Part shown: positions 11,497 to 55,943 of the stretch, piece by piece | Layout of the letters: the number at the start of each line of letters is the position of its first letter | Position numbering within the stretch: the first letter of the stretch is position 1 | Origin: Cystobasidiomycetes sp. EMM_F5 | Taxonomy: Eukaryota | Direction of reading: 5' to 3' | Assembly: GCA_051047955.1 (NCBI GenBank) | Contig: JBPGPT010000016.1 | Coordinates: 1-64,000 of the forward strand | DNA: 64,000 bases | Translations under genes and position numbers: made by a program | Notes under the pieces: generated by a model | Database searches by the model: none | What the model was told of the DNA's origin: nothing | The model's input: only the letters and a program-made list of their open reading frames with translations

Positions 11497-13032
11497 ATGT
11501 CGGCAACCCTACCTCAGATCGATGCCGCTACCTTTGCGTTGCTCAACGCCGATGCACAGCAGGCTTTACTTGCTGGCATCCGGTTGCTAGATAACACTCT
11601 CAATGCAGAGCTCATTGCGGCAGCTGCGACAATGTACAGCTAATTGTACAAAGTGCTACAGACAACGTCGAGCTGACGCCGCGTCCAGGACTGTCGGCAC
11701 ATATGATGCCATCACGATGTTTCCACGCGAATTGAAGCACATCTACTCTAATTATACTTCCTGGGTCTCCGTACGTCCGATTTCGTTTTCGTACCGTACA
11801 GGCTGATACAAAGAAACATCAGCTTGTTTATCTCTTCACGAGATTCTCATTTCAGATTCAACTTATATGGGGGGTAAGATTGCAGCGTTCCCGTATTGCG
11901 GCAATCCAATACAGACTGACTGCTCTCCCACCCCATCAGATGTTTGTGAGCAGTGCGTGGCGGATGACTTTCAGACAACACTGACTATTCAGAGGCAGGT
12001 ATGGTTTCATGGATGGCGAAGTAGGTCACACACCCCCTTTATACGGGAATGCCGCTGATACACTCGCCTCGTAGTGGACCAATGCGACGTGATTAAGGGA
12101 GTTCTGATTTTCCTCCCTGCTATATCAGTGAGATTTGCTCCACCACTAGGATTTGTTGGGACTAAAAAGAGCAATTCGAAATGTTTACAGCTGGTTCCAG
12201 CTCACCTTTTGTTCTCCGTTCGCGTCTGGTCAATCGTAAGCCTGTCGCGCATACGGTCGATCTTGAGCTCACGAGCGAATGTTGTCAAGTGGGCGCATAA
12301 GAAATGGGTGCTGCTCATCTGCCTTCCGCCCATTGCGGGCGAATTCATAGCAATTTGCTGGCTGGCCTACGGAACGAGATTTGAGACAGCCCCGTTCCTG
12401 GGCTCGACTGGCGCTTGTATTCCTGTCGCAACCGATGATTTCATGTTGGTGTACTGGGTAACCCCCTTTTTTTGCTTGTACAGCTATCTCTCGGCTGATG
12501 AGTCAAAATGTAGATTCCCGTAATGTCGGTGGACACTGTTCTGGTCCTTCTGGCCACAGCGAAATTGTGGACGATGAAGAAATCGTTTGGACGGTTGTCA
12601 TCAAAATCAATTATCCGTGTCTTGCTTGAACAAAGCTTGCAATACTATATCTGGAATTTTCTGGCGGTGCGGTATTCGGGTATTTGCTGAGCGAATTGTA
12701 CTGACCTGCTCATATTCATTCATATCTTCGGATAGAACATTATCAATCTGTAGGTCATTGCGGAGATCGCTTTTCTACTGATTGTGAACTGATGTGGACA
12801 CACTCTCAGAATCTGGAGCGTTTCCAACTACGGGAAACCAGACAGCTCCTTATTGTCAGGGCCTACAGCAACGATCAACATACTTCTCAGCTTGCGCTGC
12901 GCCCTGGAACTCCGGGAATTTACTAGCGAAGGAGCAACTTTCCATGATCCCCATTCGAAATCTACAGTGCCGTCAGGTGGTTCTGCAGTGCAACGCATTG
13001 GCGACATTGAGCTAAGAAGTATGGCGAAGTGA
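11497..13032 (+). CDS. 7-TM integral membrane protein, DUF6533-like / GPCR-like, paralog A (11 exons)
   Basis: Hand-spliced across 10 GT-AG introns to an open frame: YDAITMFPRELKHIY..LVYLFTR..MDQC..FSVRVWSIW..GAC..DTVLVLLA..QSLQYY..SLRCALELRE. Confidence 0.8.
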
Positions 13033-15456: not shown

Positions 15457-17402
15457 ATGCAGCAACAACAGCAGCCAACAAGTAGCCTCAGTCCTGCCTC
15501 CGTTCTGCAGGCACTCGACCTCGCCGGTGGCGCAGATGGCATCAATGAAGGCGTGTTGTTTGGCGAACAATCAGGTGTGAATGATCGCAAGATATTGTCG
15601 TCCATATGTCCGTCGACGGGGGAGACACTTGGGCGCGTCAGCGTGGTCTGTTGTTCAGCCTGCAATAGCAGTCGCGACTCACGCTGACTTGGTACCTGAC
15701 CTCCAGGCTCATGAAACGGAGATCGACTCCCTCATCGCTTCTGCACATTCCGCTTACATCGTGCTGCGGATGATGCCTGCACCCGAGCGGGGCACAGTCC
15801 TGCTTACAATTCGCTCTCTTTTGGCTGAGAACAAAGTGTCCTTGGGCGCCCTCATTTCGCTTGAAATGGGGAAAGCCATTTCCGAGGGTATGGGTGAAAT
15901 ACAGGAAGCCATCGATATATGCGACTATGCCATCGGTCTCTCACCAATGCTGCCTGGCAAAGTCGTCCCAAGTGAAAGACGCGATCATTTCTTAATGGAG
16001 AGCCCAAGCCCGTTAGGCGTTGTCCTTGTCGTATCCGCCTTCAATTTCCCGCACGCAGTCATGTTCTGGAACTTCGCTCTCAGTTTTGTCTGCGGCAACG
16101 CAACTGTCTGGAAGCCCTCTGAAACGGCGGGCTTGATTGCAGTCGCAACGACAAAACTTGTTCACAAAGCTTTCCGACAGCATAAGCTTCCTGTTGCACT
16201 TCTTTCGCTGTGTTGCGGCGAGGTTTCCGTCTCTAAGGCACTAGTAGCCCACCCGCGCATCCCTCTGGTGTCCTTTACTGGATCGGAGAAGACAGGAAGG
16301 TTAGTATCAGCGGCTGTCGGCGCCAAGCTTGGTCGCAGCATACTTGAGCTGGGCGGAAACAATGCCATCGTAGTTCTTCCGGACGCCAATCAAGAAATGG
16401 CGCTCCGTACGGTCCTGTTTGGAGCGCTGGGGACTGCTGGTCAGCGATGCACGTCAACTAGGCGTCTGCTTCTACATCAGTCTATAGCAGAAGACTTCGT
16501 CGAGCGTCTCAGCAAGGCTTACGCCAATGTGATCAATACTCATCGCATCGGGGATCCACTCGACCAGGCGTATTTGATGGGTCCAGTACATACCGCTGTA
16601 GCGGTCGACGCATACAATGCGGCGTTAGTCGAAGCTCAAAAGCAGGGAGGTCGGCTACTGTGCGGAGGGAGCGCTGTCAAGCACCTCAAACAAGGCTACG
16701 AGAAGGGATTCTGGGTGCAACCCGCCATGGTCTTCCATGCTGATCGCCATCCGGAGATTATGGAAGAGGAGACTTTTGCCCCGATCCTGCGTAAGCGCCG
16801 GTGTCCCGCTATCCGATTCTTTCTTCTAATCTTCAGTTGCTCCGACGCTAGACATCTCTACGTTCAAGACCCTGGAGCAAGCGATCGACTTGAACAACCG
16901 CGTCCGCCAGGGTCTGTCATCCTCATTATTCACCACGTAAGCTCAAAACCTCTACGAACTGCATTAGCTGAACAAATACATTTGCTTCGCAGGTCAATGC
17001 AATCAGTATTCGAATGGTTAGGTCCTGCTGGATCGGATACCGGAATCTGCAACGTCAATCAGAGCACAAGTGGGGCGGAGGTGAGTGCAGTGCTGTGGAC
17101 CATCGTGTGCTAGGCCTGATGCGGCACTTTATGTGGTCAGATAGGATGCGGATTCGGCGGTAATAAGGGTAAGCCGCTGCTACAGCCATCCCTTGGTCTT
17201 CCTCAGCTGAAGCTATCATGCAACTAGCGACTGGCTGGGGACGCGAGTCTGGAGGCGACGCCTGGAAGCAGTATTGTAGCTGGAAGTCTGCGACAGTCAA
17301 TTTTGGCAATCAGCTAGGCTTGGTGGGCAATCGAAAAACAGTTGTTTGCCGTGACTGACTAATTCTTTTCGGGTTTAGGCACAAGGCTTGGTCTTTGAAT
17401 GA
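15457..17402 (+). CDS. ALDH7A1: aldehyde dehydrogenase family 7 (antiquitin / alpha-aminoadipic semialdehyde dehydrogenase-like)
   Basis: SAFNFP, WKPSE, SFTGS, LELGGNNA, catalytic AGQRCTS, EETFAPI; spliced C-terminus [37 protein letters not shown] is characteristic of ALDH7. Confidence 0.88.
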
Positions 17403-17541: not shown

Positions 17542-18929
<1,388 letters not shown>

Positions 18930-19099
18930 AGTGCCGACCTCAGTATCTGTTGTCGTATTGCCAATCCGTTTTTCGTCGTCCAATTCCAGCACCAGCCAAA
19001 TTAGGTGGCAAACATCATTGGTTGCATTAGGCTCACACGCTGGCATGCTATGGTAACAACAACACGCAGAGAGTGGTATCATGACTGTTCTTCCCGACT

Positions 19100-20151
19100 T
19101 CATTTCTGTATCCGCTCAAACCGCCAGAAGTCAACGAGAATATCGAGGCTCGCTTTCTTATGAAACGCCATAGACCTGTGTTTCAGACACAGTCAGCCTA
19201 AGGACAGCCGATCTCCAATAAGGTCTCCTCACTTTGGTAGATCATACCGCATCTCCGCGAGTACTTGTCCTTTGAAGCCAAACTGAGCGGCTCGCTTCAT
19301 GATGTAGTCCCGCGTACTTGTCTTGTGCAGCGAGTATATCGAGGTCCGTGCAATCTGTGTGATACGCAATAGCCATCATCGCAAATTGATTGATACACTA
19401 TCGTGCGAATTGCTTACCTTAGTCGCAACTTCAAGAAAGACCATATCTATTCCCTTAACTTTGGTACCAAATGGCGCGTTCTGGATCTAAGCCTGGACTT
19501 CAGCTTTCATTGCGTGTCGAAATATACATTAGCGTACGACTGAGGAAATGAAATCAGCCAAGCTAATCAGGCATGCGGATGAGGCTGCTCACCAGTATCG
19601 AATCCACCAACTATTATAAAACGGTTCAACACAACGTAAGCTGTTGTGTTTTCAGTCGATAGAAAAGTATGCACCTTTCAACCTGTCCAGTAATGGGCAC
19701 CCGTCCTCGTTCAGCTGCGCGACATCGGCTTGAATAAAGTCAATTTCGCTGTCGACCTCTGCCTCCGCCACATTCTCGAGAGCAGTCGCAAGAGCGGCCT
19801 CGTCGACATCTACTCCCAGAACATAGCTTTCCGTTGTAAACATCAGTCTTGGGGGGCCGTCTTGCTCATGTAGCGGTCATTCACCTGGCACCACATATGT
19901 TTGCAGCGATTGAGAGGATGCCGCAACCGCAGCCCAAGTCGAGGATCTTCTTGTCGGCAATCTCATCGTACGAACTATGCGCCGTAAAGAGCATGCGAGA
20001 AGCTAGGTGCGAGGATGTAGGGTACTGAATCCCTAGACTTCAGCCTGAATACCATGGTCGACGATGGACCACCGACCTGTTCCAGTATTGGATTGGCTTC
20101 AGCAAAGCGGCGGAGAGGCTGCAAAGCACTTTCAAGATCTTTGAGACGCAT
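19100..20151 (-). CDS. METTL5: METTL5-like rRNA N6-adenosine methyltransferase
   Basis: MRLKDLESALQ..LEQYPTSSHLASRMLF, SAM motif ILDLGCGCGILSI, GVDVD, FDTVIQNAPFGTK..GIDMVFL, YSLHKTSTR, AEMRYDLPK..FHKK..VDFWRF*. Confidence 0.92.
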
Positions 20152-21259
20152 GACTTCGCTTTGTAGCACCCGAAGGCCAGATGGGCAATATGCAAGCAGG
20201 AAATGGTTCGGCGAAGCAGTTCGGACGTCACCACGTGATATCGTTGTCTCACACCCATCGATGGTGACTTGTGCCCGTCGCACCGGACCAGCAAACTACT
20301 GTTGCATACACAAAGAATATTCGACAAATATAACCTCCCCGGCCTGCGTATCTCGATAGCCAACGACACTTGACAAGGTGGGTTCAATGTCATGGCATCG
20401 GTACGTAGATGCCTCCCAGTCTCTCACGCTCTCCAGTCTTCTCTTGGGCCAAATGACAAGTAATACTAGTCTGACAAATACGACCTATCTGTCTCGACAT
20501 GCGACCGCAGAGCAGTGAAGACATTTTAAGACGACCCGGAGACTTCGCTACGCCTTGGATATATGCACGTGAATCATAATGCCCAACATCAAAGCTGAGT
20601 GACGCGTATGCTGCAAACAGTCAGCGACAGTGAGCGGATGGCTGCGTCCATCAGAAGCATCCTTATCCCTGGAGAGAAGTAGTTACGCTAATTTAGTTGA
20701 TGCTGCAAGTCGATTTGCGGAACGGTAAGGGCAACGCCATCCGATACATCGTTGTCCTGTCTTAGCAATATCAGCATCGTTCTGCTTTATCGTCGTGACG
20801 TGTTGTCGCCGGCATCTCCGCGCCAGCTGCGCTGTTAAGCGCCTGGGAAACTGATCTAAATCTATGAAAGACGCGGGATTCTCGGATGTCAGCATTTGTC
20901 AGCTTCCGTGCGCAAAAGTCAATGTCGTTGGATAGAGCTAGGGTCGAGATTAGCAGATCGACTCAAAGTCTGCTCATGTTATTTTGGCAGGAAACGAACG
21001 AAATGCGCAGTAGTCCAGATGTCCGATGCTAGCTACAGTCTGGCAGGCGCCAACTTGGTGACGTCAGCACACTTCTGCAGCTTTCTCTCGCTGTTGCAGA
21101 GAAATCTTGTTCAACGGGCAACGAGGAGCCTTTGCAGCAGTTCACGCGTCCGTATCGAGTGGCTGGCCCTTTTCGTATAGCGCGTTCTGTATATTGAGTC
21201 CTTCAGTTGGGGTCTACGTACTGCACGCCCCAGCTTGTCAGCTTTGACCTTCTCTGTGA

Positions 21260-54931: not shown

Positions 54932-55943
54932 TTAGAATTGCGCAGAGTACTGCTTTGCACACTCCAAACCCGTTGCAATGTGCATCAACCTGCAGCACCG
55001 TCAGTAATGATTTGAACCGATATCGCTCCACAGCAGCTTACCTAGCATCGACAGCATAACCCAGCTTGTCGTAATCCATAAGGGTTTGGTAGAGATCCTT
55101 GATGGCAACAATACGCTTTTCGATGAATTCGCCTTCATCGAGGTGCTGCTCAGGCTCGACTAGCTCGTCGCCCTCCTGTAGCTCTACTCGGATTGTTGAC
55201 AAGCACATGTTGGCGGACGTCATGCCTGGATCTGACCATATCACTGGAGACACCTTGTCTGTCTTGCCCTTGTAGCCTGTCTCCTCGTACAACTCTCTCT
55301 CTGCAGCTTCAGACGGTTGCTACGTGGGGCATTGTCAGATTAAAATGGTTCTTCGATGTAGACGGTTCTTGCATACCTCATCCGCATCGACGAGACCAGC
55401 TGGCAATTCCACGCAGATAGCGTTGACTGGCGGTCTAAACTGCAGAACAATGACTGTAGACAGCGGTTCTGTTGCATTGGCATCGTCAGCATCATCGCCA
55501 CACTTGCACTTAGCAGGACACACTTGACGGGTGCGATATGAGCGCCAACATGGCTACGGCATCCACTCCAGCTTTTCCACGAGTCTTTCTACTCGCGCAT
55601 TCCCAGACTGTTACGATGTTTCAGCAGTGTCTTCTCACATCCGCTTGTGGATCGCAATTACGTACCTTTCTGTGACACAGAGGTGCGATCCGTCAGCGGA
55701 CGCACGTTCGCCATAAACCGAGCGCACCTCTTGACCGCCAGCGTTTCTCCACTTTATCCCTTCAAGCGATACCCATTTCGGCTCCTTTAGCTCCTCCTTG
55801 CTGAGCACCTTCGAATCTTTGAGCGTGTCTGCCGGTTTCGCTAATGACGTTGCTTTCGAAGAGCTCATGGTTCTGAGGATTTGCTGTCGACCGAGAATTT
55901 TAATGAGGCTTCCAAGTCTTGCAGCAGTGCTGTTCACGGTCAT
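54932..55943 (-). CDS. YSA1: ADP-ribose pyrophosphatase (Nudix, NUDT5/Ysa1)
   Basis: QFRPP..ELPAG; complete Nudix box GLVDADE-QPSEAAERELYEETG; SDPGM; LDEGEFIE; VDARL. Confidence 0.9.

Follow-up and report, generated by a model that had tools for sequence, protein, structure and literature searches.

Internal exons of one to three nucleotides have been documented in both fungi and plants. In the basidiomycete Coprinopsis cinerea, the published account of the long-read annotation gives 13 internal exons of one nucleotide, 57 of two and 27 of three, the two-nucleotide exons being spread over 50 genes, and it describes the omission of exons of up to 3 nt as leading mostly to premature stops (PMC12230235). 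In Fusarium, the CYP621A genes are reported to contain a 1-nt exon that has read support and is conserved in about 20 orthologues (PMC12940212). APC11 of Arabidopsis is likewise described as having a constitutive 1-nt exon, which was tested with reporter constructs (PMC4674806). A related arrangement is that of the [D1,2] stwintrons of filamentous fungi, in which two U2-type introns are removed in sequence, the inner intron interrupting the donor of the outer one so that no exon bases lie between them.

Here we describe a locus of Cystobasidiomycetes sp. EMM_F5 in which the dinucleotide TC probably constitutes a 2-nt exon of an intact METTL5 gene, splitting a Val codon as G / TC. All positions refer to the window, that is, the 64,000 nt of contig JBPGPT010000016.1 (GCA_051047955.1) that were analysed. 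The locus resembles the Coprinopsis cases in belonging to a basidiomycete with short introns (PMC12230235) and differs from them in subphylum, as EMM_F5 is a member of the Pucciniomycotina. With the exon described in the Fusarium CYP621A genes it has in common out-of-phase boundaries within a conserved motif, two short flanking GT-AG introns, an intron-less relative that serves as a guide, and the quality of an annotation trap; the Fusarium exon, however, is 1 nt long and conserved, while that of EMM_F5 is 2 nt long and apparently lineage-specific (PMC12940212). The nature of the evidence also differs, since full-length transcripts are reported for Coprinopsis and sequencing reads for Fusarium, whereas the exon of EMM_F5 is predicted from sequence and homology. 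As described for Arabidopsis APC11, the ultra-short exon is required for the reading frame, although that case concerns a plant gene (PMC4674806). Unlike in a stwintron, two coding bases stand between the EMM_F5 introns, but a nested reading is formally possible and is considered below. A preliminary description of this DNA had placed exons of such size near the physical minimum; as a mark of novelty this does not stand, given the 1-nt exons reported in Arabidopsis (PMC4674806) and Fusarium (PMC12940212) and the 57 two-nucleotide exons counted in Coprinopsis (PMC12230235).

The METTL5-like coding region occupies the minus strand from 20151 to 19100 and consists of 8 exons, which when joined form an open reading frame of 217 codons (654 nt with the stop). 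Exon 1 (20077-20151, 75 nt) carries the ATG start, exon 2 (19885-20024, 140 nt) the SAM-binding motif I, and exon 3 (19675-19826) measures 152 nt. It is followed by intron 3 (19611-19674, 64 nt, GT-AG, phase 1), which has a counterpart at the same place in a relative (P0012), and by exon 4 (19593-19610), an 18-nt microexon. The proposed exon 5 is TC itself (19538-19539), and the remainder of the gene comprises exon 6 (19418-19486, 69 nt), exon 7 (19233-19354, 122 nt) and exon 8 (19100-19175, 76 nt, including the TGA stop). The seven introns are all of the GT-AG type and measure, in gene order, 52, 58, 64, 53, 51, 63 and 57 nt. The 188 nt of the gene around exon 4 are thus crowded with three introns, of 64, 53 and 51 nt.

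The assignment of the gene to the METTL5 family, made in the preliminary description, is borne out by comparison with known structures. Exons 2 and 7 both match chains of human METTL5 (PDB 6h2u, 9ohl) first among PDB structures, with E values of 8e-13 and 4e-11, respectively; the fungal sequence differs from the human one at motif IV, which is NAPF here and NPPF there. A protein search with exon 2 yielded 13 relatives among 16 candidates, the best named of which belong to rust fungi (Puccinia, 65-72% identity), and two further sequences (P0002 and P0004) reach 78%. P0004, which is 75% identical to the gene model, in turn matches human METTL5 (6h2u_A) over its full length with an E value of 1.6e-54. 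The glycine-rich motif I for SAM binding is present, since the alignment of exon 2 with the PrmA and MTS profiles falls in their motif I region, and across this motif exon 2 is identical to its relatives. On these comparisons, the locus is a predicted intact orthologue, in a yeast of the Pucciniomycotina, of METTL5, the 18S rRNA N6-adenosine methyltransferase, whose target in the human rRNA is A1832. METTL5 is described as requiring TRMT112 as a partner (PMC10915109).

The layout of TC and its two introns given in the preliminary description agreed with the DNA to the base at every coordinate, and the spliced reading proposed for the junction was recovered when the exons were joined by their coordinates. 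The last base of exon 4 is the first base of the Val codon (phase 1). Intron 4 (19540-19592, 53 nt) begins with the donor GTGAGC, contains a branch-like CTGAT (19553-19557), and ends in a pyrimidine-rich stretch and a CAG acceptor. TC then supplies the second and third bases of the codon, GTC, and is followed by intron 5 (19487-19537, 51 nt), which has the donor GTACGC, a branch-like CTGAA (19499-19503) and a TAG acceptor. Exon 6 starts in phase 0 with Ile-Gln and the variant of motif IV. TC thus has on either side a canonical intron complete with its donor, branch and acceptor signals. Both introns had been judged normal beforehand, which agrees with their lengths, inside the 51-64 nt range of the gene, with the G at position +5 of each donor, and with the branch-like motifs, located 14 and 13 nt from the 3′ ends of introns 4 and 5, respectively. 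The 106 nt from 19592 to 19487 correspond to two introns of gene-typical length plus 2 nt.

The best-supported reading in our analysis is that TC would be a constitutive 2-nt exon, because the introns that split the Val codon, 53 and 51 nt long, are both of the ordinary U2 type, and that it would be needed, because the flanking exons are both METTL5 and their frames are joined only by the insertion of 2 nt. TC is required for the frame and at the same time restores a conserved Val. From this we infer its inclusion in the mRNA. In intron 5, use of the TAG acceptor implies that an earlier CAG (19493-19495), 7 nt past the branch A, has to be skipped over; an AG is likewise bypassed 7 nt past the branch A in intron 1 of the same gene. 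As a separate observation, the 3′ ends of introns 1 (20025-20045) and 5 (19487-19504), both on the minus strand, have in common a 9-mer that includes the branch-like CTGAA, which could reflect either a shared origin or a shared constraint. A comparison of the seven introns with the rest of the 64 kb revealed no introner-like copies, the closest hits being of 12-16 nt with E values of 0.13 or worse.

The strength of this reading can be appreciated when it is set against the other ways of splicing the same region. For the region 19700-19440, every open solution was enumerated that contains no more than three introns, each 40-220 nt long and of the GT-AG or GC-AG type, and the full-length products were scored against a profile built from nine relatives, the 2-nt-exon model being left out of it. 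This gave 926 open solutions, 221 of them with GT-AG introns only. The 2-nt-exon model ranked at the top of the 926 with 358.4 bits, and the best solution without the TC exon obtained 349.1. When two rounds of splicing, including nested ones, were allowed, 30 distinct open products resulted, and the 2-nt-exon model was again first (358.4 versus 349.6 bits). The margin over the best rivals, of about 9 bits, is strong and derives entirely from homology. With intron 3 fixed and one further intron permitted, seven solutions exist: the four of the GT-AG type all delete the catalytic motif, while two of the three GC-AG solutions keep it and score 343.5 and 342.5 bits, with seven additional residues where Val would stand. 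The initial statement that no single-intron solution could be found is thus accurate for GT-AG introns with intron 3 fixed, but must be amended to acknowledge two GC-AG routes and one nested, stwintron-like route, all of them lower-scoring.

Spacing within the family also tells the readings apart. In the 150 best representatives, all of which carry the motif, an Asp lies at position -5 from the motif Asn in 138, at -4 in none and at -6 in one, and a Val occupies position -3 in 123. Among the readings compared, the positions -5 for Asp and -3 for Val are obtained together only with the 2-nt-exon model; the Asp moves to -4 in the nested route and to -6 in the frame-shifted GC route.

These figures bear directly on the two kinds of alternative that preserve an open frame. 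In the first, a nested [D1,2]-stwintron-like arrangement, intron 4 would be removed first, joining the G of exon 4 to TC and thereby creating the donor GTCGTA of a 54-nt outer intron, with loss of the Val codon in frame, as either the main product or a minor isoform. This product is open and comes second of the 30, with 349.6 bits; GT-AG borders would be used in both steps, and stwintrons of such type have been described in fungi. On the other hand, it leaves the Asp at a position found in none of the 150 representatives, discards a Val kept in 123 of them, scores 8.8 bits below the 2-nt-exon model, and depends on a donor with neither G at +5 nor A or G at +3, when GTACGC, located 3 nt downstream, has both. 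We regard it as very unlikely.

The second kind dispenses with the microexon by means of GC donors, since GC-AG introns occur at a low rate in fungi. In one form, intron 3 would use a GC donor 2 nt downstream (19672), so that the 18-nt exon would be read in the other frame and 19592-19487 would be spliced out as a single 106-nt intron; in the other, exon 4 would extend to a GC donor at 19572, followed by an 86-nt intron, and seven residues would replace Val. The frame stays open and the catalytic motif is retained in either form, but the scores are 345.4 and 343.5 bits, respectively, as compared to 358.4 for the 2-nt-exon model, and neither GC donor has a G at +5. Moreover, the first places the Asp where one representative in 150 has it, and the second adds seven residues to a strand whose length is constant in all 150. 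Splicing through GC donors is accordingly assigned a minimal probability.

If TC is a 2-nt exon, introns 4 and 5 would be removed one after the other, since two spliceosomes presumably cannot occupy sites 2 nt apart, and either order would lead to the same mRNA. Once one of the two is out, TC would form the last bases of an exon of 20 nt or the first bases of one of 71 nt. The ordered splicing put forward in the preliminary description is therefore a reasonable inference from the distance between the sites, and the METTL5 TC exon adds nothing new on the workings of the spliceosome.

A different proposal is that omission of TC might be regulated. Joining the donor of intron 4 to the acceptor of intron 5 shifts the frame, as had been foreseen, and a stop follows 11 codons on; an mRNA of this sort would be frame-shifted and prone to decay, and its production could tune METTL5 output. 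This early stop is the point in favour of the potential on/off switch that had been suggested for the locus. Against it, the search for an RNA fold that might order splicing revealed no conserved or unusually stable structure in the region (z = 0.09, with a fold as good or better in 104 of 200 shuffles). Moreover, the arrangement does not qualify as a conserved regulatory device, since the nearest relative lacks it. The idea of a switch finds no support here, and regulated skipping of TC seems to us highly improbable.

A more elaborate possibility is that two introns arose 2 nt apart in one Cystobasidiomycete lineage, immediately ahead of the catalytic motif, that once intron 4 has been removed the donors GTCGTA and GTACGC, 3 nt apart, would compete while the outer sites could also pair with each other, giving products with Val, without Val or frame-shifted, and that the two unusual residues that follow the junction, discussed below, would represent a co-adaptation of the exon to splicing. 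We consider this scenario quite unlikely; if it were true, the gene would exemplify in nature an rRNA methylase whose dosage is controlled through the order of splicing.

Whether the AG-TC-GT arrangement might be a coincidence was addressed by means of 20,000 dinucleotide-preserving shuffles of the interior of the 106 nt, in which the outer donor and the last 22 nt were kept. Any AG-NN-GT that splits the sequence into two introns of at least 40 nt appeared in 705 of the 20,000; the number fell to 105 when completion of the Val codon was also demanded, to 31 with the addition of a branch motif, and to 9 with that of G at +5 of the inner donor. The TC arrangement is thus unlikely by chance.

This result weighs on the main competing explanation, according to which the gene is decaying or broken, or the assembly is in error, so that the 106 nt would behave as a single intron, leaving a frame-shifted mRNA, and AG-TC-GT would be coincidental. 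Several observations fit such a view. No product of the METTL5 gene from EMM_F5 occurs among the matches of the exon-2 protein search, and a relative has no introns at the TC site. The beginning of exon 6 bears two rare substitutions. Motif IV (19475-19486, minus strand) reads NAPF, and in the 150 representatives NPPF is found in 147, NPPY in two and NAPF in a single one; just ahead of it the model has a Gln, a position at which Met is present in 111 representatives and Gln in none. The NPPF catalytic motif typical of METTL5 is therefore replaced in the model, and both rare changes lie directly after the acceptor of intron 5. The catalytic motif that had been announced just after the TC junction is indeed there, although in the atypical form NAPF and not as NPPF.

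The pair of substitutions could indicate relaxed constraint. However, NAPF is also present in P0167, an otherwise intact member of the family, and other N6-adenine methylases tolerate a residue other than Pro at the second position. The change from NPPF to NAPF is judged mild for the predicted enzyme.

Other observations speak against decay or error. Apart from TC, every exon is open and conserved, and this extends to the 88 downstream codons read in the frame that TC restores. In the comparison with the closest relative (L001), 71 of the 88 codons downstream of TC are identical (81%), with a pN of 0.11, and upstream of it the figures are 94 of 126 codons (75%) and a pN of 0.19; synonymous sites between the model and this relative are close to saturation. 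The conservation of the 88 downstream codons implies that the downstream frame was maintained through the greater part of the divergence, a break of recent date being still compatible with it. Furthermore, the coincidence would be a rare one (9 to 105 of the 20,000 shuffles, depending on the features required), the 106 nt would by accident have the length of two gene-typical introns and 2 nt, and an assembly error of 2 nt in non-repetitive sequence is presumably infrequent. Taken as a whole, decay or error appears unlikely, and the reading of TC as an exon of an intact gene the probable one.

The history of the intron pair was approached through a metagenome scan, in which 80 loci of 454 relatives were compared. 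The closest of these 80 is L001, a transcript contig that has no introns. Its alignment with the model is continuous, with 166 of 215 residues identical (77.2%) and no gap at the TC junction, and the Val codon of L001 is GTC, the same codon that is split as G / TC in EMM_F5. A close kin of L001 is represented by P0012, a gene call on a genomic contig that lay outside the 80 loci. The P0012 product has an in-frame insertion of 18 residues at the place of intron 2 and a read-through at the place of intron 3, after which it ends in a tail of 17 residues. When this tail was compared by eye with the shifted-frame translation of the L001 cDNA over the junction codons, 14 of the 17 residues agreed. 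This agreement indicates that the stretch around the TC site is uninterrupted DNA in that relative. Introns 2 and 3 are consequently common to EMM_F5 and P0012, but introns 4 and 5 are not.

None of the seven multi-segment loci among the 80 of 454, all distant (35-50% identity), has a break at the TC site. Exon 3 was also compared with proteins in order to detect gene calls of close kin that run through introns, and none of the 121 candidates scored. The TC exon is not conserved in the one relative whose layout is readable (P0012), which has no introns there. The preliminary description had proposed looking at orthologous loci in related fungi; the intron pair was found neither in P0012 nor in the seven multi-segment loci. 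From these comparisons, the pair is apparently lineage-specific. Two routes to it can be envisaged. Both introns may have been gained 2 nt apart, or else a cryptic AG-TC-GT within a single intron may have been recruited after frame loss. A recruitment of the second kind, of a cryptic micro-exon after loss of the frame, is what the corresponding report proposes for the 1-nt exon of Fusarium (PMC12940212).

The 2-nt exon in a fungal METTL5 gene is a probable addition to an already documented sort of exon. Phrase searches and a search of the literature on METTL5 in fungi retrieved, among the matches listed, no published report of a 2-nt exon in any METTL5 gene. With this locus, a case from the Pucciniomycotina would join the ultra-short exons of Coprinopsis, Fusarium and Arabidopsis, and, as a relative lacks both introns, it would furnish a dated example of how such exons arise. 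Its main value is probably practical, as an annotation trap: predictors that are unable to place a 2-nt exon will break the gene or drop it. No RNA went into the annotation of the nearest named genome, and the same paper mentions 27 Cystobasidiomycetes genomes (PMC12697161). Independently of any 2-nt exon, which that relative does not have, METTL5 has also been mis-called in P0012, whose public gene call reads through two introns and ends frame-shifted.

Other features of the 64-kb window were recorded in passing. A loose motif scan for tandem intron pairs returned 277 intron-like hits as compared to a shuffle mean of 226, which marks the pattern as unspecific, and 11 pair entries at 4 places as compared to a shuffle mean of 1.85. 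Among these, tandem pairs of intron-like sequences with 2 or 4 nt between them are located at 11874-12033 (both strands) and 55608-55727 (minus strand); the former was dropped as a further example, having no clear coding context. In run X1 (possibly DNA, share 0.08), four contig pieces fall at 18091-18649 and 20196-20437, outside the METTL5 gene body. One of them, a contig of 241 nt, matches 20196-20437, upstream of the gene, without substitutions and lacks one base, at 20244, and the other three pieces are less than 90% alike. The downstream neighbour of METTL5 (17727-18930, minus strand) looks like a multi-exon gene for a JAB/MPN-domain protein, a 38-residue exon piece matching PF01398 with an E value of 0.0019, below the family cut-off. 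Finally, an aldehyde dehydrogenase reading frame lies on the plus strand at 15581-17110 (PF00171, E value 1e-93), and it is 98% identical to an EMM_F5 protein, the next named relative being that of Cystobasidium minutum, with 57% identity.
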